64,000 bases of DNA, taken from positions 434,319 to 498,318 of the forward strand of contig OZ220720.1 of assembly GCA_965116655.1 (NCBI GenBank), read 5' to 3'. The DNA comes from Dehalococcoidia bacterium (GTDB taxonomy: Bacteria > Chloroflexota > Dehalococcoidia > Lucifugimonadales > VXLM01). Under the pieces are notes generated by a model, which worked only from the letters and a program-made list of their open reading frames with translations, made no database searches and was not told where the DNA came from. The position numbers and the translations under genes are program-made. This document shows positions 4,430 through 64,000 of the stretch, in pieces. The first letter of the stretch is position 1; every line of letters starts with the position of its first letter.

Positions 4430-4435
4430 CCTGCT

Positions 4436-5032: not shown

Positions 5033-5042
5033 GAGCGGCGTT

Positions 5043-6224: not shown

Positions 6225-6283
6225 GGAGTATGTGGCGCGTGAGCCGGTCCGTTCCCAGATAGCTGATGTTCGCACCCATCGTC

Positions 6284-6338
6284 ATTATATGCCAGTCCGG
6301 GCGAAATCATTCTTGGGCCGAACCTGATTGAGTATAAT
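6284..6338. promoter_or_regulatory. Divergent promoter region with two perfect TATAAT hexamers (minus strand 6284-6289 for tgt; plus strand 6333-6338 for alaS)
   Basis: Hexamers read directly in the 150-nt tgt/alaS intergenic region. -35 elements are weak. Confidence 0.4.
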
Positions 6339-6374
6339 GTTGCTTTGAGCTTGACCAAGAGAAGGCGGGCGACG

Positions 6375-9442: not shown

Positions 9443-9559
9443 CGATCAGGGCCTGCCTCACCGCTCTTTCTCGCTCCCCTGCCCCATAGCGTTTCAGTCC
9501 CGGTCCGTCAAGATCGCCGTATGCGTCTGATATACTAGGGCCACCTTCGTCCGGGACCC

Positions 9560-10396: not shown

Positions 10397-10406
10397 GCGA
10401 GACCGC

Positions 10407-12059: not shown

Positions 12060-12082
12060 GATTGCGGACATAAGCTCGCTAG

Positions 12083-12913: not shown

Positions 12914-12944
12914 AGAGAAGAATCGACTTTCGTGAGGGAGAGAC

Positions 12945-14075: not shown

Positions 14076-14178
14076 GATGGGGCCTGCCTCTCGGCAGTGT
14101 AGGTCTACAGCCTCGTCGGCTCCATGTGCGTCACGTCACGCTGTAGAGAGTCGGGAGAGTAGACGCGCGGTGCGTACC

Positions 14179-14412
14179 CTACCCGACCGTCGCGTGCGGG
14201 TTGCGCTCCGCAAGCTCCTTGACGACCGTGTCCTTGTCGGTCTCGCCGGTCCAGGGCGTGGGGAGACGGTTCGTACCGAAGATGCGCGTCATTATCGGGT
14301 CGTCGTTCCCCTCGCCGTCGGAGTGGACCGTATACCAGACGCTCTCTTGCTCGTCCAACTCGACTTTGATATTTCGTACTTCGCCTGTCCAACCGAAGCT
14401 AACGTATCCCAT
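14179..14412 (-). CDS. Small hypothetical protein (77 aa)
   Basis: Acidic, non-repetitive translation with genome-like codon usage. It fills the gap between convergent neighbours. No recognised family. Confidence 0.45.
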   Translation of the reverse strand: MGYVSFGWTGEVRNIKVELDEQESVWYTVHSDGEGNDDPIMTRIFGTNRLPTPWTGETDKDTVVKELAERNPHATVG

Positions 14413-14453
14413 GTCGAACCCTCAGTCGATTTCTTTATGTCGGTTTCGGCGAA

Positions 14454-15881
14454 CTATGATACTCCAAGGCGTTGCGTTTGCAAACCGGAGATGCCCAGCG
14501 CTTCCAGTCCTCCGCGGGCCTTATCGAGCGTCTCTTGGTACTCGGCATCGGGATCGGAGTCGGCAACGATGCCGCCACCGACCTGCAAGTAGACCCGCTG
14601 TCCCTTCGCTACCATAGTGCGTATGGGGATGGACAATTGCATGGAGCCGTCGAATCCGATGTAGCCGATGGCGCCGCAGTAGACGCCTCGCTGCACAGGC
14701 TCGATTTCATCGATTATCTCCATCGCCCGAATTTTCGGCGCGCCGGTAACCGACCCGCCGGGAAAGCACGCCTTCAGCAGATCGATCGCATCGTGCTCGG
14801 GGCGGAGCCTACCGGTCACTGAAGATACGAGTTGATGCACGTTGGGATACTTCTCAACGGTGAAGAGCTCCGGCACCCGGATGGTTCCCGGCAGGCAGAC
14901 CCTGCCGAGATCGTTACGAAGAAGATCGACGATCATGATGTTCTCGGCGCGGTCCTTTTCGCTGTTCGCGAGTTCCCTTGCGAGACGGATGTCTTTTTCG
15001 TTTGTAACTCCCCTCGGGCGCGTGCCCTTCATGGGACGGGTTTCTACGAAGTCGCGTTCTACACGCAAGAACTGTTCCGGGGAGGCGCTCAACACACTAG
15101 ACTCAGGGAACCTTAAGTAGGCCCCGAACGGAGCGGGAGCCGTGTTTCGTAGGGATTGGTAGAGCGTCCATGCGTCCGTATCGACGGTCGCTTCGAATCG
15201 CTGAGAGATGTTCGCTTGATAGATGTCGCCGGCGGCGATGTACCTTTTCACTCGCTTCACCGCCTCGACGTACTGCTCGCGCGTGAAGTTCGACCGGAGA
15301 TTCGACGTAATGGTGGGTAATCCGTTCCTAGAGGTTGAGGTATCGCACCCCTTTGCGATGCGGTCCCTCACCCACTGGATCCGCCCTTCCCTACTGAACT
15401 TGGTAGTAACAAGCCACGACCGACCATTTGCATGGTCGAATGCGATAACCCAGTCGTAAAACCCGATGCTCATGTCTGGCAGGCCCATGTCATCCACGGC
15501 CTTTCCCGGCAGTCGTTCGAGGAGCCGTCCCAATTCATAGCCGAAATAGCCTATCGCGCCTCCCTGAAACGGCGGCCCATCCTCGCGGCGGCTCGTCGCA
15601 AACTCGGCCAGCAATCGCTGGATTACCGAAAACGGACTGTCATGCTGTTCAGCAACGTCACCGTGCTCGATCACCACTACTTGCCTGCCCTTCGAGCGCA
15701 CGACAAGAAACGGGTCGGCGGTAACGTAGGAATACTGCCCTAGCCCCGGTCGCACAAGGGCGCTATCCAACAGGACCGGGTAATCGACATCCAGAAGACC
15801 GGACATTACCCCAATTGGATCAAGGTGCGATTCCAGCTCTTCTATCCTGGTTTCGGTTGAGGTGGGCTGAAGAGTCTGCAA
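14454..15881 (-). CDS. pabB: Aminodeoxychorismate/anthranilate synthase component I (PabB-like)
   Basis: Chorismate-binding motifs FQGGAIGYFGYE, GDIYQANISQR, PGGSVTGAPK, RGVYCGAIGY. Confidence 0.85.
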   Translation of the reverse strand: MQTLQPTSTETRIEELESHLDPIGVMSGLLDVDYPVLLDSALVRPGLGQYSYVTADPFLVVRSKGRQVVVIEHGDVAEQHDSPFSVIQRLLAEFATSRREDGPPFQGGAIGYFGYELGRLLERLPGKAVDDMGLPDMSIGFYDWVIAFDHANGRSWLVTTKFSREGRIQWVRDRIAKGCDTSTSRNGLPTITSNLRSNFTREQYVEAVKRVKRYIAAGDIYQANISQRFEATVDTDAWTLYQSLRNTAPAPFGAYLRFPESSVLSASPEQFLRVERDFVETRPMKGTRPRGVTNEKDIRLARELANSEKDRAENIMIVDLLRNDLGRVCLPGTIRVPELFTVEKYPNVHQLVSSVTGRLRPEHDAIDLLKACFPGGSVTGAPKIRAMEIIDEIEPVQRGVYCGAIGYIGFDGSMQLSIPIRTMVAKGQRVYLQVGGGIVADSDPDAEYQETLDKARGGLEALGISGLQTQRLGVS

Positions 15882-15953: not shown

Positions 15954-15978
15954 CAACAATACTGTATAGTATTTGTTG
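15954..15978. promoter_or_regulatory. Near-perfect 10/11-bp inverted repeat (CAACAATACT-GTAT-AGTATTTGTTG) overlapping a TATAGT -10-like hexamer upstream of metV-metF
   Basis: Read directly in the pabB/metV divergent intergenic region. TATAGT lies at 15965-15970. Confidence 0.45.
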
Positions 15979-16017
15979 CATCCGACACCACTGAACAGCT
16001 TCTGCACGTCAATCGCC

Positions 16018-16479
16018 ATGGCCCTTCGACGGCTTCAAGACCGTCCTCGCATCCTCGAAATCGCGTATATAGCGACACTTGCCGCTCTGCGTCTTTTTCG
16101 TAAAGGACTGAATCCTGGAGGACTGGTCGAGAAAATCTTCGTACCCGGCGAGAGAGTTACGAAGGGCCTCATCTTCGACTGCAAGATGTGCGGGGATTGC
16201 GTCTTGCACAACACGGGCATGACGTGTCCCATGACCTGCCCCAAGAACCTCCGAAACGGCCCGTGTGGAGGCGTTCGTCTGAATGGGAACTGCGAGATCG
16301 AGCCCGACATGCGCTGCGTGTGGGTGGCGGCTTGGGAGCGGTCGCAGAGGATGCCGCAGTTCGGCGCAGGGATCCACGAGGTCCTCGCGCCAACCGACCG
16401 ACGGCTTGAAGGCACTTCATCGTGGATCAACGACATCAGCCCGAACGTCACCAAGCGACCGATTGGGTGGGCTGAATGA
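16018..16479 (+). CDS. metV: Methylenetetrahydrofolate reductase C-terminal-domain protein (MetV-like Cys-rich small subunit)
   Basis: CKMCGDCVLHNTGMTCPMTCPKNLRNGPCGG motif. ATGA overlap with metF. ATG at 16018 is preferred over TTG at 15973. Confidence 0.8.
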   Translation: MALRRLQDRPRILEIAYIATLAALRLFRKGLNPGGLVEKIFVPGERVTKGLIFDCKMCGDCVLHNTGMTCPMTCPKNLRNGPCGGVRLNGNCEIEPDMRCVWVAAWERSQRMPQFGAGIHEVLAPTDRRLEGTSSWINDISPNVTKRPIGWAE

Positions 16480-17453
16480 AGTCGGGTTCCCAACTGGAAC
16501 GAGTCCTCAGGGCGGGCCACTTCGCGGTAACTGCGGAACTCCTGTCCCCAGACAGCGCCGACCCGCAAGCCGTGCTCGACCACGCACAAGTCATCGGTGA
16601 TTCGTGCGACGCAATCAACGCAACCGACGCATCGGGCGCGACCACGCACATGTCGAACGTCGCCGTAGCCGCCCTCCTCCGCCGGGCCGGATACGACGCT
16701 GTCGTCCAACTGGCTTGCCGCGACCGGAACAGGATCGCCATGCAGGGCGACCTGCTGGGCATTGCCGCTCTCGACGTCCGAAACGTCCTGTGCCTGACCG
16801 GCGACGGTGTCGCCACGGGGGATCATCCCGAGGCGAAGCCCGTGTTCGATATGGACTCCATCACGCTGCTCCAAACGGCCCGCATTCTCCGTGACAAAGG
16901 ACAGTTCCTCAGCGGTCGCCCCATTGACTCACCGCCACGCCTGTTTCTCGGAGGGGCTAGCAACCCATTCGTCCCGCCCTACGATTTCCGTCCGCTGCGA
17001 CTAAAAAAGAAGATCGAGGCGGGCGCGGACTTCATTCAGACGCAATACTGCTTCGACGTTCCGCGCTTGAGGTCGTTCATGGAGCGTGTTGTCGACATGG
17101 GGCTGCACGAGCGAGTGTTCATTCTCGTGGGCGTCGGACCGCTTCGGTCGGCAAGAGTGGCCTACTGGATGCGAGAGAACATCCCTGGTGTCGTCATCCC
17201 GGACACCGTGATCAGACGTTTACTCGGCGCAGGGAAGCGTTCACGTACCGAGGGCAAGCGCATCTGCATCGAGATGATCCAGCAGATCAAGGAGATTCCG
17301 GGCATCGCGGGCGTGCACATCATGGCCTACCGACAGGAGCACCTCGTACCGGAGATTCTCAATGAAGCGGGCTTGCTCCCCAGACCGGAACCCGAACTCC
17401 TTGATGATGTTCATACGCCCGAGTTTGATGTCGTGGAATCGGGTCTGAGCTAA
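16476..17453 (+). CDS. metF: Methylenetetrahydrofolate reductase
   Basis: MTHFR-type TIM-barrel motifs (FAVTAEL, INATD, LACRDRNR, NVLCLTGD, FIQTQYCFD). Confidence 0.88.
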   Translation: MKSGSQLERVLRAGHFAVTAELLSPDSADPQAVLDHAQVIGDSCDAINATDASGATTHMSNVAVAALLRRAGYDAVVQLACRDRNRIAMQGDLLGIAALDVRNVLCLTGDGVATGDHPEAKPVFDMDSITLLQTARILRDKGQFLSGRPIDSPPRLFLGGASNPFVPPYDFRPLRLKKKIEAGADFIQTQYCFDVPRLRSFMERVVDMGLHERVFILVGVGPLRSARVAYWMRENIPGVVIPDTVIRRLLGAGKRSRTEGKRICIEMIQQIKEIPGIAGVHIMAYRQEHLVPEILNEAGLLPRPEPELLDDVHTPEFDVVESGLS

Positions 17454-19221: not shown

Positions 19222-20019
19222 GTGATAGAATTCAGAAACTCTCTACCCTGCGAACAGGTTCTCGTGGTCAACAGACGTTCAGGCCGTGTCATGGTGTCGG
19301 AGCGCTACTTTGCCGGTCCGGCACGCGTTCGGAGATTGTTGAACGACTTAGGTGAGGGTAACCCAGATGCAGGGACGCTGTATCTTCAACCATGGCACAG
19401 TGGAGAGACCGATAGATTTACTGCGGAGGATCAGATTCGCGAGGTTTTGAGGACGGTGCCCGATTCGGAGACCGGAGCCGCAATCTTCCGGAATAACGGC
19501 AAAGTATGGGTTGTTCTTCCACCCTTCCCAATCGAGGAATATTTGTTCTCCGATGGAATAGACAATTCCGGTATTGAAGAGGTCTTCGAACGCGACGTAA
19601 CAGTCGGAGTCGTGCTCCTGAGGATGGGCAGGTACGCGATAGGCGTCGTTCGAGGCAATGAGCTGCTCGCTTCGAAGACGGATACCCGCCACGTCAAGAA
19701 CCGCCACCGGGCGGGCGGCTCGTCTCAGCGGAGGTTCATGAGAAGTCGCGACCGGCTCATTCGAGAGCTGTACGACGAGGCTTGCACCGTTACCCGGAGG
19801 ATTTTCGAGCCGCATCTCGGCACCGTCGACTTCGTACTAACCGGTGGGGAACGCCAGACAATTAACGGGTTTCTCAAACGGTGCGACTTCTTCGAAAAGT
19901 CGGATCTGCCCGTCATGAAACGGCTGCTGGCGGTCGAGCGACCAAGTCACAAGGCTTTGGAGGGCATCCACCGCGAAGTGTGGAAGAGTCGCGTGCTTGT
20001 GTTCGAGAGGCCCGAATAA
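19222..20019 (+). CDS. VLRF1-type (Vms1/ANKZF1-like, eRF1-fold) peptidyl-tRNA hydrolase candidate
   Basis: VVLLRMGRYAIGVVRGNELLASKTDTRHVKNRHRAGGSSQRRFMRSRD...FVLTGGERQ matches my memory of the bacterial acVLRF1 signature (GG-x-SQ-x-RF). Start ambiguous (GTG 19222 or ATG 19291). Confidence 0.6.
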   Translation: MIEFRNSLPCEQVLVVNRRSGRVMVSERYFAGPARVRRLLNDLGEGNPDAGTLYLQPWHSGETDRFTAEDQIREVLRTVPDSETGAAIFRNNGKVWVVLPPFPIEEYLFSDGIDNSGIEEVFERDVTVGVVLLRMGRYAIGVVRGNELLASKTDTRHVKNRHRAGGSSQRRFMRSRDRLIRELYDEACTVTRRIFEPHLGTVDFVLTGGERQTINGFLKRCDFFEKSDLPVMKRLLAVERPSHKALEGIHREVWKSRVLVFERPE

Positions 20020-39199: not shown

Positions 39200-40588
39200 A
39201 TGCAGAACCCCATCGACATCGGTATCAATCGACAGCTATTTCTCGACGACTTGATCCTCGACACGATGAGCGGGGCGAAGCGAACCATGCACTCCCCCAC
39301 TCGGCGAGAGACGGTTCTGGTGGGCGACAAGCCCTGGGACAGGTCGAGCGTCGCCTATATGTCGGTAATCCGCGACGGCGACCTGTACCGTGGCTACTAC
39401 CGATGCGATCACGAAGGCTCCGACGTAAGAGCGGCCAGCCCGCGTCACACGGCATATGCGGAGAGTGAGGATGGCATCTGCTGGAGGAAACCCAACCTCG
39501 GTCTGGTCGAGTTCGACGGCTCAAAGGACAATAACCTCATCTGGATGGAGCCGGGGGCGAATCTCTGCGTGTTCATCGACACCAATCCGGCGGAGCCTCC
39601 CGAACGGCGGTACAAAGGCGTCGTGCGGACGGGACGTGTGGAGGGAGAGCAGCTCGGCGCGCCCGGTCCCTGCGTTCTCGCGCTGTCGTCGTCGGACGGG
39701 ATCAACTGGGACCTGATGCAGGACGCTCCGATTCTCACGGACGACCCCTTTGATTCATTCAACATCGCCTTTTGGGACGAGTGGACGAATCAGTACGTGA
39801 TCTATACGAGGGGCGTCGGCGGGTCGGACGGCCCATTCAAGGGGGGAGTTCGCTGGATCAGGCGCGCTATGTCCGACGACTTCGTCAACTGGAGCGGCCT
39901 CGAGCTGATAGATACCGGAGAAGTGCCTGACGAGCACCTGTACACCAACGCCTGCGTCCCTTACGAGCGGGCACCGGGCACGTACCTCATGTTCCCTTCC
40001 CGCCTAGTGCTCGAGCACACGCCTGAACCCGACTGGGTGGGCGGTCCCGGTGTCAACGACATCGCCTTTATGAGCAGCCGGGACGGTATCACGTGGGATC
40101 GCACGTTCAAAGAGGCGTTTATCCGTCCGGGGCTGGATATGGAGAACTGGCATGAGCGGGGGATATACTTCGAGCGGGGAATCTTCCAGACTTCGGAAGA
40201 CACGCTGAGCATGTACTGTTCCGACCACTGGCGCTACCCCACGACTCGCATATCGCGTTACACACTGCGAACGGACGGCTTTGTTTCCGTCAACGCGGGC
40301 TATAGAGGTGGTGAGTTCATCACGAAACCGATTGTATTCGAGGGCAGCGAGCTGGAAATCAACTACTCGACTTCGGCGGTGGGTTCGGTGCAGGTCGAAA
40401 TCCAGGACGATCAGGGTCGGCCACAGCAGGGATTCACCCTGGCTGACTCGCCGGAGCAGTACGGCGACAAGTTCGACTATCGCGTCTCGTGGGCCGGTGG
40501 CCCCGATGTCAGCTCGTTCCAGGGCAGCCCGGTGCGTTTGAGGTTCGTGCTGAAGGACGCGGACCTGTACGCCTTCAAGTTCAACTAG
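39200..40588 (+). CDS. Hypothetical protein, probable glycoside-hydrolase-like beta-propeller with C-terminal beta-sandwich
   Basis: N-terminal RQLFLDD, repeated W/D-rich blade-like segments, C-terminal ...VRLRFVLKDADLYAFKFN typical of GH32/43-like accessory sandwiches. Family not firmly recognised. Confidence 0.4.
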   Translation: MQNPIDIGINRQLFLDDLILDTMSGAKRTMHSPTRRETVLVGDKPWDRSSVAYMSVIRDGDLYRGYYRCDHEGSDVRAASPRHTAYAESEDGICWRKPNLGLVEFDGSKDNNLIWMEPGANLCVFIDTNPAEPPERRYKGVVRTGRVEGEQLGAPGPCVLALSSSDGINWDLMQDAPILTDDPFDSFNIAFWDEWTNQYVIYTRGVGGSDGPFKGGVRWIRRAMSDDFVNWSGLELIDTGEVPDEHLYTNACVPYERAPGTYLMFPSRLVLEHTPEPDWVGGPGVNDIAFMSSRDGITWDRTFKEAFIRPGLDMENWHERGIYFERGIFQTSEDTLSMYCSDHWRYPTTRISRYTLRTDGFVSVNAGYRGGEFITKPIVFEGSELEINYSTSAVGSVQVEIQDDQGRPQQGFTLADSPEQYGDKFDYRVSWAGGPDVSSFQGSPVRLRFVLKDADLYAFKFN

Positions 40589-55013: not shown

Positions 55014-55250
55014 TTGGTCCGAGCATTCATCTTGATTGAGGTCGCTGCAGGCTACTCGACGGCGGTCGTCGACAGCCTATCCGGGCAAAACGGCATAGTC
55101 GACGTGGTTCGAGTGACGGGGCCTGTGGACGTAATCGCGATCGTTACTGCTCCCACCATCAAAGGGGTGAGTGACCTCGTAGGCGAGAAGATCCACACAC
55201 TCCAGGGCGTCATCCGCACGACGACGTGCGTGGCGCTGCAGGGATCGTAG
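55014..55250 (+). CDS. Stand-alone Lrp/AsnC ligand-binding (RAM) domain protein, no HTH
   Basis: 78 aa. RAFILIEVAAG...VVRVTGPVDVIAIV pattern. AGGAGG Shine-Dalgarno 7 nt before the TTG start. Confidence 0.7.
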   Translation: MVRAFILIEVAAGYSTAVVDSLSGQNGIVDVVRVTGPVDVIAIVTAPTIKGVSDLVGEKIHTLQGVIRTTTCVALQGS

Positions 55251-55321
55251 TTCCCTTAAAACGCGCTGCCCTATTCCGGCTTCATCAAAAGCAGTAGGGA
55301 GAAGTATCGGGACGAACTAGG

Positions 55322-55993
55322 CTAGGAGGACTGCTCGGTCGCCCCGGTTGAGTCTGCCACCTCGTCCCATTCCTCGTCGGTCTGCCATTCATCACCGGCT
55401 CGTCTGCGACGGCGATGACCGAGCAGCGCGTGGGCGAGAACGAGTCCACAGAGACCGCCCATGCCGAACACAAGCGTCGTGTCGCCGTTGAAGTAGACCG
55501 TCAGCCCCGCCAGCGTGGCATACCCGAAAACCACATTCAATAGCGATGAGTAAGGCAGCTTCTGGCCACCGAGCGCCACTATCGACGCCACCGCCATGCT
55601 GATGAATCCGTACACCGGGAACAGCGCGAAGATCGAGCCTCCCAGGGTGACGAGGCCGTCACCACCCCGAAAGCCGGTGAACATCGACTTCCAATGACCT
55701 AGGACCGCCACGCCAGCAGGAAGAAGCAGCCAGGGACTCTCAACGCCCATGACATTACCTAAAAGGATCGCAAGGGCCCCTTTAGCCATGTCGCCGAGGA
55801 AAACCATGACCGCGGGCAATTTGCCCACGTTGCGCATGACGTTTGACGCGCCCGGCAACCCCGTGCCTACCTCGAAGATATCAACACCGCTGTGACGCTT
55901 GCTGATGAGGTAAGCCAGCGGGATGGAGCCTAGCAAATAGCCGCCGGCAGTCGCTATTAGCACCGTCGGCAGGCCACCAAGGAAATCACCCAA
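55322..55993 (-). CDS. plsY: Glycerol-3-phosphate acyltransferase PlsY
   Basis: YLLGSIPLAYLISK, GTGLPGASNVMR, FRGGDG (KGG-like) motifs, polytopic. Acidic/basic C-terminal tail. Confidence 0.88.
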   Translation of the reverse strand: MGDFLGGLPTVLIATAGGYLLGSIPLAYLISKRHSGVDIFEVGTGLPGASNVMRNVGKLPAVMVFLGDMAKGALAILLGNVMGVESPWLLLPAGVAVLGHWKSMFTGFRGGDGLVTLGGSIFALFPVYGFISMAVASIVALGGQKLPYSSLLNVVFGYATLAGLTVYFNGDTTLVFGMGGLCGLVLAHALLGHRRRRRAGDEWQTDEEWDEVADSTGATEQSS

Positions 55994-56199
55994 GACCGAT
56001 CACTCCTCGCTGGGGGTCTTGTCGTGATTATATATCCGGTCTTGCCGGATGCGCTATAGGTTACAGGTGGTAAATCGGCGACATCTTTTGCTCGCGACAA
56101 AAGTTGCCTGCCCTTCTTGGTGTCATCGCGCACATGCCGACGAGTACGGGCTATAATGGTTATCGAACCGAGTCTCCTTCCGAGGTGGAATGGAAACGA

Positions 56200-56544
56200 A
56201 TGGCAAGGGTGCGCGTAATGTATTGGAAGGAAATTCCCGTGCAGGTGCAGGCTGCGGATGGGCCGGAGCAGGTGTCCAAGCCCCTCGATGAGCGATTCCA
56301 GCATGGAGCGGACGCGATCTCAATGTTCGACGGCAGCGCCGGAACAGACGACTACTTGATGGCCTGGAACTGGGGTGAACACTTCGAGGTCGAGGGAACG
56401 GCCGAGGAGGCAGCGACTCAGACTGCGGCGCGGTACAACAGCGGGTTTCCAACCGATTTCGTAGCGCGTATCCGCGACCTCCACAACGCAGGCAAGCGCG
56501 ACACCGCTCCCGGCGCGATCGACGACTGGATGAAGGGCGGTTGA
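56200..56544 (+). CDS. Small protein resembling the 'virulence factor' domain that accompanies split MetH/MTHFR genes
   Basis: VRVMYWKEIPVQVQA...GTDDYLMAW resembles the YW-x-IP-x-QV pattern I recall for that family. TATAAT at 56152-56157 and a GAGGTGG Shine-Dalgarno support the ATG at 56200 over the TTG at 56104. Confidence 0.45.
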   Translation: MARVRVMYWKEIPVQVQAADGPEQVSKPLDERFQHGADAISMFDGSAGTDDYLMAWNWGEHFEVEGTAEEAATQTAARYNSGFPTDFVARIRDLHNAGKRDTAPGAIDDWMKGG

Positions 56545-56553
56545 GGAAGACCG

Positions 56554-57474
56554 ATGGAACAACCGACCATACTCGAACGACTGGCAACGGGAGACGTCCT
56601 TATCTCTGATGGCGCAATGGGCACCTATCTCCAAGCACGCGGCCTTGAACCGGGCGGGTGCCCGGAGGCGTTCAATGCCGATCATCCGGAGATCATACGG
56701 AGAATGGCCGCTGACTATTTCAACGCAGGGTCCAACATGGTGCTGACTGCTTCCTTCGGAGGCTCCCGTTTCATGCTGGATAAATATGGGTACTCCGGCC
56801 AGGCGCGAGAGTTCAACCGTTTGGCCGCGACACACGCAAGGAGCGTGGCCTCACCGTGGCACTTCGTGGTCGGTTCCATCGGACCTACGGGTGAAATCCT
56901 CCAGAGCAACGGAGGCACGACCGCCGATGACGAGATGTATGACGCCTTCGTCGACCAGGTGACCGGCCTGGAAGAGGGTGGGGCCGACGCGGTCGTCATC
57001 GAGACGATGATCTCGGTTGAGGAAGCGCTCCTCGCGCTCAGGGCCGCGAAGGAGCACACGGATTTGGTCGTCATGTCCACGATGATGTACGACAAGGGTC
57101 CACGCGGCTGGTTTACGATGATGGGCGACACTCCCGCCTCGGCCACCAAGCGACTCCGCGACGCAGGCGCGGACGTGGTTGGCACGAACTGCGGCAACGG
57201 CAGCGACCGCATGGTCGAGATCGCAGAGATAATCAGAGAAACCTACGACGGCTACATGCTTATCCACTCGAACGCCGGCATCCCGGAGATACGACAAGGC
57301 CAGATCGTCTATCCGGAGACACCGGAGTACATGACCGAGCGCTTCCTGAAGTTGGCCGACATCGGCATCAATATCATCGGCGGCTGCTGCGGCACGACTC
57401 CCAAGCACATCGAACGGTTTGCCGACGCGATCCATGAACGCACTACCGTCGGTTACCCGGTAGGCGCTTCTTAA
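56554..57474 (+). CDS. Homocysteine S-methyltransferase domain protein (MetH N-terminal module / BHMT-like)
   Basis: LISDGAMGT, Zn-ligand contexts GTNCG and IGGCCGTTPKHI. Confidence 0.88.
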   Translation: MEQPTILERLATGDVLISDGAMGTYLQARGLEPGGCPEAFNADHPEIIRRMAADYFNAGSNMVLTASFGGSRFMLDKYGYSGQAREFNRLAATHARSVASPWHFVVGSIGPTGEILQSNGGTTADDEMYDAFVDQVTGLEEGGADAVVIETMISVEEALLALRAAKEHTDLVVMSTMMYDKGPRGWFTMMGDTPASATKRLRDAGADVVGTNCGNGSDRMVEIAEIIRETYDGYMLIHSNAGIPEIRQGQIVYPETPEYMTERFLKLADIGINIIGGCCGTTPKHIERFADAIHERTTVGYPVGAS

Positions 57475-57504
57475 AACACGCGATTCGTAGGGAGGGAACA
57501 CAGA

Positions 57505-58182
57505 ATGACCAGTCTCAAGAACGCCAAGAGGGGAAGAGTCCGTGAGGTGATTGCCACGTACGGCAAGTGCATGGAACTTATCCCCATGGACCCCAACTTC
57601 CACGAAATCACCGTAGGGCTGTATGTCAAGGACGGCATAGGCACGGTCTGGACGTTCAGCGGGAAACCCGGGGTCGAGAAGCGTGTAGAGGAAATTCGCG
57701 GGCAGCTCGTCGAGCTTGGTGGCATGATCCCCGTCGAGGGTACTCACAATCAAGCCAAGTTCCCCGACGGCGAGATGTACGACCGACCGCTCCGCTTCCT
57801 ATTGCGACAAGCTGTGGAGAAACCGTATGGCACGCAACACCCGGAAGGACGCATCGAAATCAAGGACCTCCGCTCGCCGCTCCAGATCATCGCCACGCCC
57901 GAGGAGATTGACGGGCGATGTATCTATCGCATCACTGCCGAGGGCGAGTACAAGAACCCGACAATGCGCGTCCGCGCCGTCACGCAGGGGTTCGTCCGCT
58001 ACGGAGAAATGGAGAAGGTCGACGTTGACGCCGTAACCTTCACTCACGGAGGCCGCAGAGACGGACTGATCCGCCTCGTCCTGCCCTACGCCCGCAACGT
58101 CACCGGCACCGCCGACATGCTCGAAGCCGAAGCCCTCCGCGGCCAGATGACGACCGGCACCCTTGGCTTCGCGCAGACGTAG
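57505..58182 (+). CDS. Hypothetical protein (225 aa) inside the corrinoid methyltransferase cluster
   Basis: GGGAGGG Shine-Dalgarno, 30-nt spacing from the upstream gene, genome-like codon usage. No family recognised. Confidence 0.6.
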   Translation: MTSLKNAKRGRVREVIATYGKCMELIPMDPNFHEITVGLYVKDGIGTVWTFSGKPGVEKRVEEIRGQLVELGGMIPVEGTHNQAKFPDGEMYDRPLRFLLRQAVEKPYGTQHPEGRIEIKDLRSPLQIIATPEEIDGRCIYRITAEGEYKNPTMRVRAVTQGFVRYGEMEKVDVDAVTFTHGGRRDGLIRLVLPYARNVTGTADMLEAEALRGQMTTGTLGFAQT

Positions 58183-58240
58183 GGAGGTTCTGCGAATCAG
58201 ATGGTAGAACTAGCGGCTTAGGAGGCAATGGAGGCGCGCC

Positions 58241-58705
58241 ATGCAGCAGACAAGCGAGACCCGTGCAAAAGTAATCGTAATCAAGCCGGGCGATCCCATC
58301 CCTCCCCTTGTCGACCTCGACGAGGTGTCCAGGGACGGCCCCATATTCGAGGGAACGGACGTGCCTGTGCAGTACATGTTCGAATATCTGGACCGAGTTC
58401 ATAACCTGCACGCCTTCTTGGACGATTTCCCGGAGGTAAGCATCGGACAGGCGCTGAAGGCGATCAGAGAGCGCGTAAAGGCAAACAACGTAATTCACAG
58501 CAACACGGACTACGTGAGCGGCACACCCGTCTTCAAGGGAACACGTGTGCCGGTTGATACTCTATTCGATTTCCTGGTAGCGGGGGACAATCTTGACGAA
58601 TTCCTTGAGGGCTTTCCCACGGTAAGCCGTGAGCAGGCGATCGAAGCTCTCAACCTTGCCAGGCACGTCTTGGAAAGTACCGCCTATGAAGCTGCTCATA
58701 GATGA
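58241..58705 (+). CDS. Tandem-DUF433 protein (antitoxin-like)
   Basis: Two copies of the DUF433 pattern: GPIFEGTDVPVQYMFEYL...FPEVSIGQALKAI and GTPVFKGTRVPVDTLFDFL...FPTVSREQAIEAL. Confidence 0.75.
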   Translation: MQQTSETRAKVIVIKPGDPIPPLVDLDEVSRDGPIFEGTDVPVQYMFEYLDRVHNLHAFLDDFPEVSIGQALKAIRERVKANNVIHSNTDYVSGTPVFKGTRVPVDTLFDFLVAGDNLDEFLEGFPTVSREQAIEALNLARHVLESTAYEAAHR

Positions 58706-59015
58706 ATCTCTAGATGTTCGGCTAAGGCATCGGCTTCCTGAACATGACACTCGGACAGTTGAATACATGGGTTGGAAGAGCATCGGAAATGGTGAACTCC
58801 TAGCGTTAGCGCGGCAGGATTTTGACGCTTTCATCACGCGGGATCAGAACATACCAGACCAGCAGAACATCACACCGGAAGAAATTCCAATCATCGTGCT
58901 TCATACTCGATCAAATCGCATGAGTGACTTAGAACTATTGGTGCCCCAAATCCTTGAAGCGTTGCAAAGCATAGAGCGCGGGCAGGTTGTCCGCATTCCA
59001 CATCTCCCCGATTAG
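58686..59015 (+). CDS. DUF5615 family PIN-like (Mut7-C-type) protein (toxin-like)
   Basis: MKLLIDESLDVRLRHRL N-terminus and overall ~110-aa pattern. 20-nt overlap with the DUF433 gene. Confidence 0.7.
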   Translation: MKLLIDESLDVRLRHRLPEHDTRTVEYMGWKSIGNGELLALARQDFDAFITRDQNIPDQQNITPEEIPIIVLHTRSNRMSDLELLVPQILEALQSIERGQVVRIPHLPD

Positions 59016-59039
59016 GGGACTGAAGAAAGGAGACACACC

Positions 59040-60098
59040 ATGCCACTCCAAGAGACGATGACCCCCAGAGAGCGGGTGCTGAATGCGCTCACGGGCAAGC
59101 CGGTGGACAGGACGCCCGTGTCGAATCCCACGAACGTGGCGACCGTGGAACTGATGGACATGGTGGACGCACCGTTCCCGGACGCCAACCGCGACCCGGA
59201 GATGAACGCTCGCCTCGCGGCTACGGGCTACACCGAGCTCGGTTACGACTCGATCATGCCGTACTTCTCCATCATCCAGGAGTCCTCGGCGCTCGGTTGC
59301 GAGATGCAGTGGGAGGAGAAGGACAACTGGCCCACGGTGCGGATGAGTAACCCGATCTGGGACGGGCCGGACGACGTCCACATCCCCAGCGGGTTCCTGG
59401 AACACAAGGACAACGTCGCAATCACGCGCTCCCTATCCATCCTGAAGCGGGAGTTCGGCGACGAGGTCGCCATCATCGGCAAGACCATGGGCCCATGGAC
59501 CCTCGCCTACCACGTCTTCGGCGTGGAGAAATTCCTGCTCATGTCGATCGACGATCCCGACATGACCTTGGAGACACTCCATAAGCTCAAGGAAATTTCC
59601 GTCCTCTTCGGGCAGGCGCAAATCGACGCCGGGGCTGACGCCCTCACCTTCCCCGACCACGCGACCGGTGACCTCGTCAGCGGGGCCTACTACGACCGCT
59701 TCCTATTGGAGATTCACCAGGAGATGGCGGAGCGCCTGAGAGTGCCCCTGATCCTCCACATCTGCGGCAGGACCGTTGACCGCATGGAGGGCATCGCCAA
59801 GAGCAACATGGCCGCCTTCCACTTCGATTCCAAGAACGATCCGCAGGAGTCTATGGACGCCGTCGACGGCGGAATCCGGCTCGTCGGCAATATCAACAAT
59901 CCCGTCACTCTGTATTCGAAGGGGCCGGAGGAGGTTCGCGCCGAGGTCTATCGCGCCCTCGACGCCGGTGTTGAACTTATCGCGCCTGAGTGCGCCATTC
60001 CGCTCGCGACGAAGCTCGAAAACCTCTTGGAGATACCGCAGGCCGTCAAGGACTGGCATGAGGAACATGACGGCGAGGACGGTAACGGCACGGGTTAA
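59040..60098 (+). CDS. URO-D superfamily methyltransferase, MtaA/MtbA/CmuA-type (methylcobamide-dependent)
   Basis: TPRERVLNALTGKPVDRTPV N-terminus (no HemE-type MRQAGRY). Zn-ligand contexts LHICG and APECA. Confidence 0.8.
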   Translation: MPLQETMTPRERVLNALTGKPVDRTPVSNPTNVATVELMDMVDAPFPDANRDPEMNARLAATGYTELGYDSIMPYFSIIQESSALGCEMQWEEKDNWPTVRMSNPIWDGPDDVHIPSGFLEHKDNVAITRSLSILKREFGDEVAIIGKTMGPWTLAYHVFGVEKFLLMSIDDPDMTLETLHKLKEISVLFGQAQIDAGADALTFPDHATGDLVSGAYYDRFLLEIHQEMAERLRVPLILHICGRTVDRMEGIAKSNMAAFHFDSKNDPQESMDAVDGGIRLVGNINNPVTLYSKGPEEVRAEVYRALDAGVELIAPECAIPLATKLENLLEIPQAVKDWHEEHDGEDGNGTG

Positions 60099-60162
60099 GC
60101 GGAGAATTGCCTCGTTGTACTGAAGTCCCTTTGGGAATCATACGCCCGCATAATTGAGTAAA

Positions 60163-60187
60163 GGCGGGTTTCAAATCTACCCCTATC
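60163..60187 (-). repeat. Degenerate fragment of the GGGGCGGGTTTGAAACCCGCC hairpin repeat (inverted orientation)
   Basis: The reverse complement GATAGGGGTAGATTTGAAACCCGCC compares with GGTAGGGGCGGGTTTGAAACCCGCC in copy A. Confidence 0.4.
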
Positions 60188-60262
60188 GGATCGGCTAGGG
60201 GCTATTATGTTTCGATACCGAGGCGAACACGCCATACAAACCGAAGGAAATAACTAGAAACA

Positions 60263-61306
60263 ATGCCAAGAGTCATCGATTCACCGGAAGAGTTCACCAT
60301 CGTCGGGGAGAACATCCACGCAACACGCGTGCTGCTCAGAAACGGGCGTCGCGCCAAGACACTCGACGACGGGACGGAGGTCGTGCCGTTTAGAGGACCG
60401 GGCGGGGAGCAGCGATTGCTCACCGTCCCCGAGTGGTACAAGTCCACGCAGCCCTACCAGCAGAACCAGATCAAGCACTTCCTCATCGCCATGCGGAAGG
60501 GCATCGAGGACGATGCCGACGAGCGCGAGGAGGGCAGAGCGTACATCCAGTACGAGGTGCGGCGACAGGTGCGGGCGGGCGCCAAGTACCTCGACATCAA
60601 CCCCGACGAAGTGCACTACGACCTCGAGACGCAGAAGGCGTGTATGAGGTTCGCAGTCGAGGCGGTACAGGAGATATCCCCTATTCCGCCGTCCATAGAC
60701 TCATCCAACTCGGAGATCATACAGGCAGGACTGGAGACATACGATGGCTCCGCCGGGCGGCCAATGATAAACTCGGTCGCCGCCGAGCGCCTGGAGGCCC
60801 TCGACATGGTTGTCGAGCACAACGCCCGCATGGTCCTCATGTGCACCGGCCCCGACGGCATGCCGCAAGACGATGGGGAACGAGTCGAGAATCTTAACTT
60901 CATCATGGAGCACGTGCAGTCGAAGGGCATCCCCATGAACGACATCTACGTCGACGGCATCATCTTCCCTATCTCCGTAGACCCGCAGTATGGGAACCAT
61001 TACTTCGACGCCGTCCGCACCATTCGCGAGCAGTACGGCAACGAAATCCATATCGGCATGGGCTTAAGCAACGTCTCGTTTGGAATGCCCGAGCGAAGGC
61101 TCCTCAACGACACGTTCATCTACCTGTCCATCGAAGCGGGAATCGATGCGGGCATCCTCGATCCCATTGCGACGAAGCTTGAGAAGGTATTCGCTCTCGA
61201 CACCGGATCGGAGCCGGTGAAGCTCGCCCTCGACACTCTCGAAGGGCGCGACGACTTCTGCATGAACTACATCATGGCCTACCGCGACGGCAGGCTGAAA
61301 ACGTAG
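60263..61306 (+). CDS. Pterin-binding methyltransferase (methyltetrahydrofolate:corrinoid methyltransferase, MetH pterin module / MeTr/CmuB-like)
   Basis: VGENIH, LDINPD, SIDSS, MINSV, GLSNVSFGMPERRLLN, GILDP motifs of the DHPS-like pterin-binding barrel. Contains a ~55-aa insertion after the first strand. Confidence 0.85.
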   Translation: MPRVIDSPEEFTIVGENIHATRVLLRNGRRAKTLDDGTEVVPFRGPGGEQRLLTVPEWYKSTQPYQQNQIKHFLIAMRKGIEDDADEREEGRAYIQYEVRRQVRAGAKYLDINPDEVHYDLETQKACMRFAVEAVQEISPIPPSIDSSNSEIIQAGLETYDGSAGRPMINSVAAERLEALDMVVEHNARMVLMCTGPDGMPQDDGERVENLNFIMEHVQSKGIPMNDIYVDGIIFPISVDPQYGNHYFDAVRTIREQYGNEIHIGMGLSNVSFGMPERRLLNDTFIYLSIEAGIDAGILDPIATKLEKVFALDTGSEPVKLALDTLEGRDDFCMNYIMAYRDGRLKT

Positions 61307-61431
61307 TGCCTTCAAATATCACGGTTTTTCATGCTGACGATAGCAAAAACCAGTGATTTGCTGAGCACGTCTGCCAGTACGACCATCCCATCTCGCTAGG
61401 TTCGTTTGCCCCTTGAGCGTAACGCAATAAT

Positions 61432-61461
61432 TTGACAAAGTGCCGTATCTGGCCGAATAAT
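61432..61461 (+). promoter_or_regulatory. Candidate internal promoter TTGACA-N18-AATAAT upstream of the corrinoid protein gene
   Basis: Read directly in the 193-nt gap, 39 nt upstream of the ATG at 61500. Confidence 0.4.
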
Positions 61462-61499
61462 ACGTACCTTGTGACACAGACCTTTGAACGGGGTGGTGT

Positions 61500-62234
61500 A
61501 TGCCAACGACGGAGCATGAAGGGCTGGAGAGGGAATTCCTCTACGTAACCGACCAGTTTGAAGCAAAGCACATCAAGAGCCTCTACGAGGGTAAAGACCC
61601 TCTCATGCACGAGGTCGCCTACGCCCTGATTACGGGCAACGACGGCGAGGTGAGCAGACTGGTCGAACAGGCGCTGTCCGACGGCTGGGAGGCCAACGAC
61701 GTGCTCGACGATGGCCTGATCGCAGGCATGGCGGTGGTAGGCGTCAAGTTCCGCGACAACATCATCTTCGTGCCGGAAGTGCTCATCTCCGCCCGCGCCA
61801 TGAAGGCCGGGATGGCCCACATCGAGCCGATTCTCTCGGCGTCCGGCGTGGAGCCTATCGGCACCGTCATCATGGGCACCGTCAAGGGCGACCTGCACGA
61901 CATCGGCAAGAACCTGTGCATCATGATGCTTCGAGGCGCAGGATTCGTGGTACACGACCTGGGGGTGGACACCAAGAACGAGGAGTTCATCGACGCCGTC
62001 ATGGAGCATGAGGCCAAGGTGCTCGGCATGTCCGCCCTGCTCACGACGACCATGCCCAACATGGGCCGTGTCATCGAGGCATTCGAGGACGAGGGAATGC
62101 GGGAAGAGGTCAACATCATGGTCGGCGGCGCTCCCGTGACTCAAGAATTTGCCGAGGACATGGGGGCCGACGGCTACGGCGAAAATGCAATTGCGGCGGT
62201 GGATCTGGCTAAGAGCTTCGTGAGTTCGAGCTAA
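61500..62234 (+). CDS. Corrinoid (cobalamin-binding) carrier protein, B12 cap + Rossmann B12-binding domain
   Basis: DxHxxG motif in GTVKGDLHDIGKNL, SALLTTTM, MVGGAP motifs. Confidence 0.9.
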   Translation: MPTTEHEGLEREFLYVTDQFEAKHIKSLYEGKDPLMHEVAYALITGNDGEVSRLVEQALSDGWEANDVLDDGLIAGMAVVGVKFRDNIIFVPEVLISARAMKAGMAHIEPILSASGVEPIGTVIMGTVKGDLHDIGKNLCIMMLRGAGFVVHDLGVDTKNEEFIDAVMEHEAKVLGMSALLTTTMPNMGRVIEAFEDEGMREEVNIMVGGAPVTQEFAEDMGADGYGENAIAAVDLAKSFVSSS

Positions 62235-62251
62235 CACTGGCTACCTGTCAC

Positions 62252-62518
62252 ATGACGTCTAAGAAATCAGGCATGGCACACCAGACGATCGACAAACGGC
62301 GCTATGAGGCCAGCCTCGGCCGTCTGTACGACATCTTCAAGGGCATGTCGGAAACGGCGGACGAGGTCTCGCAGTGGCGCTGTCCTTACAAGAATGTCGA
62401 GTCGCGCTGCACCGCCAAGTTCTCTTGCCGAAATCAGCACTTCACGAACATACCCGATGATCTGCCCATCTGCACCGGAAGCGACAAGCTCGACTACCGG
62501 AGCGCGTGGGAAGTCTAG
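62252..62518 (+). CDS. Small 4-Cys protein (88 aa) of unknown function
   Basis: Starts 17 nt after the corrinoid gene. WRCPYKNVESRCTAKFSCRNQHF...PICTG. GC3-rich codon usage like its neighbours. Confidence 0.5.
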   Translation: MTSKKSGMAHQTIDKRRYEASLGRLYDIFKGMSETADEVSQWRCPYKNVESRCTAKFSCRNQHFTNIPDDLPICTGSDKLDYRSAWEV

Positions 62519-62615
62519 CGAAGCGCCGATCTTCGCCCCAGGCGGCGTGAGACTTGGAGACCTGATGCCCGAACGAGAGCTCAGGCGCGGGTAACCGGAT
62601 GGCCTTCTCACAAAG

Positions 62616-63137
62616 ATGAATGACATAACGGTCCGCTCACTGAACGAGAACGACGCCCACTCCTTCCAAGAACTGCGGCTCAAAGGGCTGCAGGAACATC
62701 CCGATGCATTCGCCTCCACGTACGAGCGCGAGATTGCATACTCCATGGAATTTGTAGCGGAGCGACTTCGCCGTACCGCGGAATCGACGAACAACTTCAC
62801 CCTCGGCGCTTTCCATGAGGAGGAGTTGCTGGGAGTGGTCGGGTTCTACAGGAAGACCGGGGAGAAAGAGGAGCATCGGGGCCACATCTGGGGCATGTAC
62901 GTCCGGTCCGATGAGCAGGGAAAGGGAATAGGGAAATCCCTCTTGGCCGACGCAGTCGAGCGTGCCAAGTCGCTTCCCGGACTTGTGCAAATCGAGCTTT
63001 GCGTAGTCACTCGCAACAAGCAGGCACGAAACCTCTACGCTTCGCTCGGTTTCTCCTCGTGCGGCATCGACCCGCGCGCGCTCTTCGTTGACGGGGAGTA
63101 CCTCGACGAGGAGCGAATGGTCCTTATCCTCGATTGA
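62616..63137 (+). CDS. GNAT family N-acetyltransferase
   Basis: IWGMYVRSDEQGKGIGKSLL (Q/RxxGxG/A), NKQARNLYASLGF motifs. Confidence 0.85.
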   Translation: MNDITVRSLNENDAHSFQELRLKGLQEHPDAFASTYEREIAYSMEFVAERLRRTAESTNNFTLGAFHEEELLGVVGFYRKTGEKEEHRGHIWGMYVRSDEQGKGIGKSLLADAVERAKSLPGLVQIELCVVTRNKQARNLYASLGFSSCGIDPRALFVDGEYLDEERMVLILD

Positions 63138-63186
63138 TGTTGGCAGAATAGGACGAATTCCCCTCCGACTGCGCTAAACTATCCGC

Positions 63187-64000
63187 ATGTCACCTATCCG
63201 ACACGACAACCGCAGGCTCGATTCGGTTGTCGGCAAGACCATCTTCGAGTACGCGGACACCCTCCGCGTGCGCGTGCCCACCTCCTGCAATCGCAGCGGG
63301 GAATGCCACGAGTGCATAGTCGAGATCAGGCAGGGCGAGGACGCCCTCAACTCCCCCACTCACGAGGAAGCGTTTCTCCGCGACAACTATCGGTTGGCGT
63401 GCCAAGCACACGTGACCGACCCGGATGCGGACGTGGAGTTCGTCATCCTCCGGCGCCAGCCGCGCATACTCACACAGACCATCAAGCGTTCCGTGCCGCT
63501 CGTTCCCTCGGTTACACGCCGTGACGACGGAGTCTATTACCTCGACAACCGCATCGACTCGTACAAGGGCAGAATCTACGGCCTGGCCATAGACGTGGGC
63601 ACGACGACCGTGGTGATGAACCTCGTCGACCTCGAATCGGGCGACGTGCTCCACACCGCCTCGTTCGAGAACCCCCAACGGTTCGGCGGCAGCGACATCA
63701 TGCACCGCATCTCGTACGACGGCAGCGAGTTCCACGGCGAGTTGCAACAGGTCATGCTCTCGTCGCTCAACTTCGAGATCGGGTGGATGGCCCGCGAGCT
63801 GGGCTTCCACCGCCGGAACATCTACGAGGTGGTGATCGTCGGAAACTCGACGATGCGGGAAATCCTATTCGGGATCGACGTGCAGTCAATCGGGGAGAAG
63901 CCGTACAAGTCGATGGTCGAACACGAGATGCTCCGGGGCGAACGGGAAACGACCGCCATCCACACGACCGCGTCCGAATTGGGTCTTCGCGTCTTTCCTC
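63187..64000 (+). CDS. Corrinoid reductive-activation protein (RACo/RamA-like): N-terminal plant-type 2Fe-2S ferredoxin + ASKHA (DUF4445) ATPase domain; 3' partial
   Basis: Not in the ORF track because there is no stop before the window end. My translation from the ATG at 63187: MSPIRHDNRRL...VPTSCNRSGECHECIVEI...YRLACQAHV...IYGLAIDVGTTTVVMNLVDLESG...VVIVGNSTMREILFGID. It contains Cx4Cx2C...C and the DVGTTT phosphate-1 motif. Confidence 0.85.
   Translation, partial: MSPIRHDNRRLDSVVGKTIFEYADTLRVRVPTSCNRSGECHECIVEIRQGEDALNSPTHEEAFLRDNYRLACQAHVTDPDADVEFVILRRQPRILTQTIKRSVPLVPSVTRRDDGVYYLDNRIDSYKGRIYGLAIDVGTTTVVMNLVDLESGDVLHTASFENPQRFGGSDIMHRISYDGSEFHGELQQVMLSSLNFEIGWMARELGFHRRNIYEVVIVGNSTMREILFGIDVQSIGEKPYKSMVEHEMLRGERETTAIHTTASELGLRVFP

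Follow-up and report, generated by a model that had tools for sequence, protein, structure and literature searches.

The MtgBCDE system of Ruegeria pomeroyi and Sinorhizobium is a branched corrinoid hub with a donor enzyme of the MttB family, and genetic work on this proteobacterial Mtg-type system showed that it is used for demethylation as well as for making methionine (Mausz et al., 2025; PMC12478193). Phaeobacter inhibens has a methionine synthase (MetH) that is split into three parts and is accompanied by a RamA-like protein and a DUF1638 protein (Price et al., 2018; PMC5764234). Both the branched corrinoid hub and the split MetH are therefore already published. In Methanosarcina, MtpA/MtpC and MtsA/MtsB are methylthiol:coenzyme M (CoM) systems, and MtpA, a member of the MtaA family, is specific for methylmercaptopropionate (MMPA) and depends on a second methyltransferase for onward transfer of the methyl group (10.1101/548461). 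Type 1 mlp gene clusters were proposed to act in methyl-sulfur and methyl-selenium metabolism (Kountz and Balskus, 2023; PMC10418091). Here, a stretch of 64,000 nucleotides from an uncultured Dehalococcoidia bacterium (contig OZ220720.1, positions 434,319 to 498,318, assembly GCA_965116655.1), referred to as the window, is analyzed. At its 3' end it carries an operon in which modules of a split MetH are combined with a zinc methyltransferase of the URO-D superfamily that resembles MtaA. The operon is conserved in marine Dehalococcoidia and SAR202-type bacteria; its probable function is to form methionine and to swap methyl groups with a small sulfur compound.

A previous inspection of the letters alone (the sequence-only reading) had described the locus as a split MetH plus an extra methyltransferase and had listed five components: a homocysteine S-methyltransferase (HcyMT), a pterin-binding methyltransferase, a corrinoid carrier, a RACo-type reductive activator and the URO-D protein. 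Window proteins were assigned to domain families with Pfam and NCBIfam and motifs were read from the translations; all five components could be identified on the + strand at the positions given in Table 1. The PF13769 ('virulence factor') gene VirF, the orphan genes U225 and S88, a DUF433/DUF5615 pair and a GNAT gene had not been listed before.

The URO-D protein was used to scan one genome per species, which resulted in 498 relatives, of which the best 80 were taken as loci and combined with four metagenome contigs, also retrieved by URO-D, to a set of 84 loci. The best 80 are 76-98% identical to the window protein and come from metagenome-assembled genomes of Dehalococcoidia, SAR202 or Chloroflexota, except four labelled Entotheonella or Entotheonellaceae; the nearest loci share 87-90% nucleotide identity with the window. 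With strand and gene order unchanged, HcyMT and U225 were each found at 81 of the 84 loci, VirF at 73, the corrinoid protein at 71, S88 at 69, RACo at 49, the pterin gene at 42, DUF433 at 37 and GNAT at 15. In a reverse test, an alignment of HcyMT orthologs was scanned against metagenome contigs, giving 80 metagenome loci, and counts were made on the 40 that extend 4.5 kb or more downstream of HcyMT. U225 and URO-D were each present in 39 of these, the corrinoid protein in 37, S88 in 36, RACo in 32 and the pterin gene in 9. The URO-D gene thus travels with HcyMT irrespective of which of the two is used for retrieval. The stable unit is VirF-HcyMT-U225-URO-D-corrinoid protein-S88-RACo, and the pterin gene, the DUF433/DUF5615 pair and the GNAT gene are variable. 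Taking all evaluable loci together, the pterin gene was present at 49 of 117 and missing from 68 (58%), and its position varies, either after URO-D or upstream of VirF. Among complete chromosomes that carry the operon, OY762443.1 and OZ244816.1 have the pterin gene at the locus, and OY282375.1, OZ250173.1 and OZ243964.1 lack it there. The split modules and the activator of the sequence-only reading could be recovered, but its assignment of URO-D as an extra is reversed: URO-D is a core component and the most conserved protein of the operon, and it is the pterin gene that varies. An alternative order, U225-URO-D-HcyMT-corrinoid protein-S88-RACo, was observed in L168-L170, L179 and L180, where the proteins are more divergent (U225 ∼30% identical), and among the long loci only L117 has HcyMT but neither U225 nor URO-D.

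The PF01208 match covers residues 8-339 of the 352 residues of the URO-D protein. Among the NCBIfam models, the protein scored 252.5 bits with PRK06252 (methylcobalamin:CoM methyltransferase), above the cut-off of 244, and 230.9 bits with TIGR01463 (mtaA_cmuA), slightly below the cut-off of 235.4. The scores stayed below the equivalog cut-offs for MtaA_Meth (225 versus 400) and MtbA (195 versus 600). Judged by these scores, URO-D probably belongs to the methylcobalamin:CoM methyltransferase subfamily and is not an ortholog of the methanogen MtaA or MtbA. Its closest solved relative is MtaA of Methanosarcina mazei (4AY7; E 1e-47, 30% identity). HemE was rejected as its identity, since only 63.6 bits were obtained with the hemE model TIGR01464 (cut-off 303) and the HemE entries of the PDB followed far behind MtaA, at E 5e-13 or worse. 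Identity with CmuA was likewise dismissed, as the corrinoid gene is separate and CmuA of Methylorubrum extorquens CM4 is only 22% identical (E 5e-6). A plasmid collection searched with URO-D returned only four remote matches of 25-29% identity, none of them informative.

The LHICG and APECA motifs of URO-D, proposed earlier as zinc contexts, align with the zinc-ligand motifs LHICG and APGCG of MtaA 4AY7. The aligned sites H240, C242 and C318 are taken by us to be His240, Cys242 and Cys319 of MtaA in the published numbering. These ligands are invariant in 20 aligned orthologs, and His-Cys-Cys is found in 84/84 primary orthologs of the genome loci. In the UroD superfamily, His-Cys-Cys is the site of S- and Se-methyltransferases and Cys is replaced in O-methyltransferases (PMC10418091), and the site therefore speaks against methanol, methylamines and methoxy-aromatics, which had been listed among the candidate donors; of that list, methyl-sulfur compounds are kept, and for methyl halides the low identity to CmuA has to be considered. 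MtvA, MtqA, OdmD and bacterial MtaA, like AcsE and MetH, were included in an analysis as relatives of the methyltransferase II (MT II) CdmA (PMC13222342), and the known methylcorrinoid:tetrahydrofolate (THF) methyltransferases are read as belonging to the pterin-binding family and not to URO-D. The possibility that URO-D acts as a methyl-THF methyltransferase at the loci without a pterin gene was therefore set aside, the more so as the invariant Cys ligands indicate a thiol substrate.

Outside the operon clade of Dehalococcoidia, the next full-length URO-D relatives are 41-49% identical. Two of them, in L089 and L092, belong to stand-alone corrinoid/pterin/RACo clusters that contain no other non-folate methyltransferase, and the remaining ones examined lie in unrelated gene contexts. 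The gene order in L089 is RACo, pterin methyltransferase, MTHFR, corrinoid protein, URO-D and CobW; in L092 a URO-D/corrinoid fusion is followed by DUF1638, VirF, an 83-aa gene, Pterin_bind and RACo (1694-7637). The fusion protein of 595 aa (URO-D, B12-binding_2 and B12-binding) resembles CmuA in its architecture and shares 41% identity with the window URO-D; a second copy of its gene lies 6 kb downstream (9355-11142), and transposase genes were found around.

Directly upstream of the main copy, eight loci carry a tandem URO-D paralog that is 67-72% identical to it. The pterin gene was present at all eight of these loci and at 41 of the 109 others (p ∼7e-4, uncorrected for phylogeny and with one duplicated contig included), and a MetF match was found at four of the eight (L055, L146, L176 and L177). 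In the tandem copies of L004/L051 and L065, Gly replaces Cys as the third zinc ligand, which hints at another substrate class or an inactive copy.

The HcyMT translation contains GTNCG and GGCCGT, and 20 orthologs all keep Cys213, Cys278 and Cys279. Its best NCBIfam matches, all partial, were YitJ-N, BHMT/PRK07534 and metH; models of the MetH/YitJ/BHMT type gave 167-244 bits, including 231.5 bits for PRK07534 (BHMT/MtgE type), under the cut-off of 338, versus 79 bits for the S-methylmethionine type model PRK09485. The pterin-binding protein carries GLSNVSFG, scored 199 bits with the MeTr-type model PRK07535 and is 32% identical to the protein of an Azoarcus cluster. A MetV-MetF reductase pair (PF12225 and PF02219), which had been noticed 40 kb upstream, is indeed present in the window and is unlinked to the operon. 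In the marine metagenome loci L146, L176 and L177 such a pair interrupts the operon, with the corrinoid gene on one side and S88 on the other (e.g. L146 12830-14300).

The corrinoid protein, with DLHDIG as its DxHxxG motif, is 46-50% identical to the cluster proteins of Azoarcus and Sinorhizobium and 55% identical to that of Gemmatirosa, compared with 35-37% for the C-terminus of CmuA and for MetH. The gene order of those clusters is corrinoid protein, DUF1638, 'virulence factor', MetV, MetF, pterin methyltransferase and ASKHA activator, and they adjoin glycine-betaine transporters or an MttB-family gene; they are the MtgBCD(E) system, which has an overlap with Phaeobacter's split MetH (PMC5764234). 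Via the corrinoid protein and VirF, the locus is therefore tied to the proteobacterial Mtg-type system. The activator is of the RACo type as judged by its domains: 2Fe-2S ferredoxin and RACo middle domains lie within the window, and the ASKHA C-terminus, which falls beyond the window end, is present in orthologs that are 94-96% identical. The ortholog in L005 has 540 aa and also contains RACo_C_ter. No MttB-family gene (tblastn, one S. meliloti query) and no DUF1638 gene (tblastn, one Azoarcus query) was found in the window or in 164 Dehalococcoidia-type loci. As no locus has an MttB-family gene, URO-D is the sole candidate for a substrate other than folate and homocysteine.

The best explanation for these observations, to which somewhat less than an even chance is given, is a multi-component methyl-transfer system on one MtgC-type carrier, in which a methyl-sulfur compound would swap its methyl group with homocysteine or THF. 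By homology, RACo would keep the cobalt of the carrier as Co(I), using ATP and its 2Fe-2S cluster, HcyMT would transfer the methyl group from the methyl-Co(III) carrier to homocysteine, yielding methionine, and the pterin enzyme, where present, would exchange methyl groups between carrier and THF, with methyl-THF coming from or going to MetVF. The His-Cys-Cys zinc of URO-D may hold a small thiol or thioether by its sulfur (or selenium), and the methyl group of that compound would be swapped with the same carrier. VirF, U225 and S88 would be conserved accessory subunits. The sequence-only reading had suggested a branched system with a single carrier; this idea stands, with three types of methyltransferase and one carrier, but the concept was published in 2025 (PMC12478193). 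None of the three outcomes named there as refuting it was observed: URO-D is not HemE, its zinc ligands align with those of MtaA, and its gene stays linked to HcyMT in 81/84 and 39/40 loci. By analogy, the logic would match that of MtpA/MtpC with the second methyltransferase, and that of MtgB/C/D/E of Ruegeria with a different family of donor enzyme.

The favoured direction is on the donor side: the methyl group of a methyl-thioether such as methanethiol, dimethyl sulfide (DMS) or MMPA would be transferred to Co(I) and from there to homocysteine, or to THF with the pterin enzyme. This direction is favoured because bacterial corrinoid systems other than MetH are demethylases, because URO-D is the only candidate for the third substrate, because all loci with tandem URO-D paralogs have the pterin gene and many of them also MetVF, as in a catabolic branch, and because MtpA provides a precedent. 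Several observations weigh against it. Methyl transfer from a thioether to Co(I) is uphill and was seen for MtpA only at high substrate concentration, while transfer from methyl-Co(III) to a thiolate is downhill (10.1101/548461), which makes a role on the acceptor side chemically easier. The H-x-C...C motif is also kept in CmuA, so that the zinc site alone is compatible with a halide substrate as well. The strong conservation of URO-D would be unusual for a substrate-specific catabolic enzyme. Finally, no conserved transporter, regulator or downstream catabolic gene flanks the operon at the loci compared; since neighbours vary between loci, flanking genes were rejected as a clue to the substrate.

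A more specific proposal is put forward tentatively, as possible rather than likely: a folate-independent, B12-dependent 'thioether:homocysteine transmethylase' in SAR202-type Dehalococcoidia. Here the MtaA-like enzyme would demethylate methanethiol, DMS or MMPA derived from dimethylsulfoniopropionate (DMSP) onto the MtgC-type carrier, HcyMT would make methionine directly, and three families of unknown fold would assist.

A role of URO-D on the acceptor side is considered rather unlikely, yet is a serious alternative. The locus would then encode a split methionine synthase fed by methyl-THF only, with the pterin enzyme encoded at the locus or elsewhere, and URO-D would be a second methyltransferase, from methyl-Co(III) to another thiol or a selenol. 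Sulfide, methanethiol, mercaptopropionate, selenide and a CoM-like cofactor are candidates for this acceptor, and its methylation would serve biosynthetic or detoxifying purposes. The characterized MtaA and MtbA run in this direction, the best NCBIfam model is that of a methylcobalamin:CoM methyltransferase, and the reaction is downhill and its reverse is not (10.1101/548461). Moreover, ClMlp2 was assayed as a methylcobalamin:selenide/sulfide methyltransferase (PMC10418091), and the strong conservation of URO-D would suit a housekeeping role. However, aerobic Dehalococcoidia have no known need for a second methylated thiol, and the pterin gene that would supply the methyl groups is absent at more than half of the evaluable loci; the demethylase function of the known bacterial systems besides MetH argues in the same direction, as does the catabolic-type association of the tandem paralogs with pterin genes and MetVF.

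It is improbable that URO-D and the separate corrinoid protein form a split, CmuA-like methyl-halide dehalogenase, in which the methyl group of CH3Cl, CH3Br or CH3I would pass via the carrier to THF or homocysteine. Methyl-group transfer from a halide to Co(I) is strongly favourable. The TIGR01463 score is barely below its cut-off, the corrinoid gene directly follows URO-D at many loci, which is the domain order of CmuA, the relative in L092 is a fusion, and CmuA shares the zinc motif. Against this, URO-D is closer to MtaA and to the uncharacterized bacterial relatives than to CmuA, and the corrinoid protein is nearer to the MtgC-type clusters than to the C-terminus of CmuA. CmuB is MtrH-like, but the MT II of the operon belongs to PF00809, and no MtrH-type gene was noticed at the locus. 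In addition, methyl halides are present in sea water at only picomolar levels.

Very little weight is given to the reading that URO-D is an alternative methyl-Co(III):homocysteine methyltransferase or a non-catalytic scaffold for the carrier, in which case the PF02574 protein would use another donor, such as S-methylmethionine or S-adenosylmethionine. Both proteins are zinc-thiol methyltransferases, and folate-independent methionine synthases fed by corrinoid proteins exist (MesA-D; PMC7857596). However, the PF02574 protein scores far better with MetH/YitJ/BHMT-type models than with PRK09485, and it is 40% identical to the HcyMT of Gemmatirosa, which adjoins a corrinoid protein and RACo without URO-D; for a scaffold, the invariance of the catalytic ligands is unexpected. 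That a URO-D gene of an unrelated pathway merely adjoins a split MetH, for which only the lack of a regulatory element could be cited (a search of 55200-64000 for riboswitches and other regulatory RNA gave no Rfam match, even at E ≤ 1), is contradicted by strand, order and short gaps that are kept in 81/84 and 39/40 loci across 51-98% protein identity, and has a negligible probability.

The best 120 homologs of VirF are all stand-alone proteins of ∼114 aa, so that domain fusions gave no clue to its function. Azoarcus, S. meliloti, Gemmatirosa and L092 also encode PF13769 proteins, within their clusters for corrinoid methyltransferases. The name 'virulence factor' is probably a misnomer, the protein looking like a subunit or accessory protein of corrinoid methyltransferases, and because the family is common to the proteobacterial system its role is probably general to these enzymes. 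An AlphaFold2 model of VirF (pLDDT 95) gave nothing significant with Foldseek against the PDB, and PF13769 was mentioned in no paper found in a literature search. U225 has 523 homologs, of which the named ones are 'hypothetical protein' of Chloroflexi/SAR202; its AlphaFold2 model (pLDDT 85) gave no significant Foldseek match in the PDB (best E 0.065, TM 0.2). The C-terminal RGQMTTGTLGF of U225 is invariant and predicted to be disordered. A divergent DUF1638 was rejected as identity of U225 (hhalign probability 0.5%), and no alignment could be obtained between S88 and the small gene of the S. meliloti cluster, which was thus dismissed as a homolog. S88 shows the motif RCPYKN..RCTAxFxCRNQ..CTGSDxLDYRSAWEV. 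Cofactor loading, docking or electron transfer are guesses for the roles of VirF, U225 and S88.

The inserted DUF433 gene was found at the same spot, between U225 and URO-D, at 37/84 genome loci (L006-L084 at about 9100-9650) and at 0/80 marine/lake metagenome loci. The start of DUF5615 was reset to the ATG at residue 20 of the open reading frame (ORF) beginning at 58629, where the Pfam match starts. The lineages with the pair are quite divergent (33-94% identity), and a toxin-antitoxin-like pair kept within a metabolic operon is odd. The GNAT gene was likewise found only in the genome set (15/84 loci, versus 0/80 metagenome loci).

Table 1. Coordinates of the operon genes, the MetV-MetF pair and related features at other loci
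Feature	Position	Strand	Support or remark
Operon	56200 to window end	+	11 genes, short gaps
VirF, 114-aa PF13769 'virulence factor' domain protein, first operon gene	56200..56544	+	Pfam E 2e-15
HcyMT, homocysteine S-methyltransferase module (MtgE/MetH-N-terminal type, Zn Cys3)	56554..57474	+	PF02574 E 5e-63
U225, conserved orphan, 225 aa	57505..58182	+	Pfam/NCBIfam: no match
DUF433 x2 protein, antitoxin-like, inserted element	58241..58705	+	PF04255 E 7e-20
DUF5615 protein, PIN-like toxin partner of DUF433, inserted element	58686..59015	+	PF18480 E 2e-7
URO-D superfamily MtaA/SCMT-like Zn (His240-Cys242-Cys318) methyltransferase	59040..60098	+	PF01208 E 7e-62
Pterin-binding methyltransferase (CH3-THF:corrinoid; MtgD/MeTr type)	60263..61306	+	PF00809 E 1e-20
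Promoter-like site TTGACA-18-AATAAT, upstream of corrinoid gene	61432..61461	+	11/12 consensus positions
Corrinoid carrier (B12 cap and B12-binding, DxHxxG), MtgC type	61500..62234	+	PF02607 and PF02310
S88, conserved 88-aa protein, four invariant Cys	62252..62518	+	Pfam/NCBIfam/PDB: no match
GNAT acetyltransferase, lineage-specific insertion	62616..63137	+	PF00583 E 1e-19
RACo-type ATP-dependent reductive activator (2Fe-2S and ASKHA), N-terminal 271 residues	63187..64000	+	Fer2 and Raco_middle; rest beyond window end
MetV, methylene-THF reductase pair with MetF	15973..16479	+	PF12225 E 7e-28
MetF, pairs with MetV	16476..17453	+	PF02219 E 3e-29; pair 15973-17453
Tandem URO-D paralogs	L004 8929-10014; L018 8948; L055 2; L065 8818; L146 8598; L176 2049; L177 8582		
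PF13769-bearing clusters	L085 (Azoarcus pAZKH) 7660-13805; L086 (S. meliloti pSymB) 2956-14467; L088 (Gemmatirosa) 9001-13986		

The sigma-70-like promoter at 61432-61461 is near consensus and marks the point at which the operon is rearranged in other lineages; it counts as weak evidence, as the number of such sites in the region is not above chance. Elsewhere in the window, a canonical MetH was looked for and rejected: the ORF at 26990-30772 encodes a 1260-aa protein in which many leucine-rich repeats accompany fn3, a subtilase domain and a P domain of the proprotein-convertase type. A TauE/SafE sulfite exporter gene adjoins an M19 membrane dipeptidase gene at 12083-14075, and a second M19 gene is located 18 kb away (31671-32852). 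Two long ORFs, 2038-3504 (488 aa) and 39200-40588 (462 aa), have no Pfam match. The release-factor-like gene of the acVLRF1/baeRF family at 19222-20019 fits a Chloroflexi origin, and the window contains only three tRNAs.

A literature search revealed no paper that links SAR202 or Dehalococcoidia with this cluster. In the searchable literature, neither an operon found throughout Dehalococcoidia that couples an MtaA-type His-Cys-Cys enzyme to an MtgC/MtgE-type carrier and HcyMT nor the three orphan partners are described. SAR202, the group of the named relatives of the locus, is among the most abundant bacteria of the deep ocean and of sponge microbiomes. Approximately 500 species-level genomes of the Dehalococcoidia type encode the URO-D clade, and the best-matching marine metagenome loci share the operon. 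The locus points to the likely methionine synthase of these bacteria, which would make them cobalamin-dependent, and suggests methyl-sulfur or methyl-selenium substrates in oxic sea water. It would extend the 2025 finding of a carrier for both biosynthesis and demethylation to a new phylum and to a donor-enzyme family of the MtaA type, and the orphan families PF13769, U225 and S88 gain a concrete biochemical setting. If the transmethylase proposal is true, an unrecognised sink of methylated sulfur and a cobalamin demand would exist in the dark ocean and in sponge symbionts.

With CmuA/CmuB of M. extorquens CM4 the operon shares a URO-D-type methyltransferase with the same zinc motif and a corrinoid module that passes the methyl group to THF, but CmuA is a fusion and that system has no homocysteine methyltransferase. 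The type 1 mlp clusters likewise combine bacterial homologs of soluble CoM methyltransferases with His-Cys-Cys, a corrinoid protein and a RACE activator. However, they occur in strict anaerobes and contain two or three Mlps, at least Mlp2 and Mlp3 among them, no THF methylase and no HcyMT, while here usually one URO-D is accompanied by HcyMT and often by a pterin methyltransferase, and the locus is thus not counted among them. Likened by their description to the Methanosarcina MtpA/MtsA systems, the locus would share an MtaA-family zinc enzyme that swaps methyl groups between a thioether and a corrinoid protein; the ∼30% identity reported here refers to MtaA, the solved member of that family. 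The second methyltransferase of MtpA hands the methyl group to another thiol, and the final acceptor is CoM in an anaerobic archaeon, whereas here it would be homocysteine and/or THF. As in the split MetH of Phaeobacter, the PF02574, PF00809 and PF02607/PF02310 proteins are separate and a ferredoxin/ASKHA protein replaces the S-adenosylmethionine reactivation domain. In contrast, the Phaeobacter enzyme has no URO-D partner and requires DUF1638, and the pterin gene is missing from most of the loci studied here. With MtgBCDE, the operon has in common an aerobic bacterial host, a RACo/RamA-like activator, a PF13769 gene in the clusters and one MtgC-type corrinoid protein, which here too would serve pterin (MtgD), homocysteine (MtgE) and substrate-specific donor methyltransferases. 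The donor enzyme is MtgB of the MttB family (pfam06253), acting on quaternary amines, in that system and an MtaA-type zinc His-Cys-Cys enzyme here, DUF1638 is absent here, and the Dehalococcoidia operon alone has U225 and S88; HcyMT is tightly linked in it, whereas mtgE is usually unlinked.

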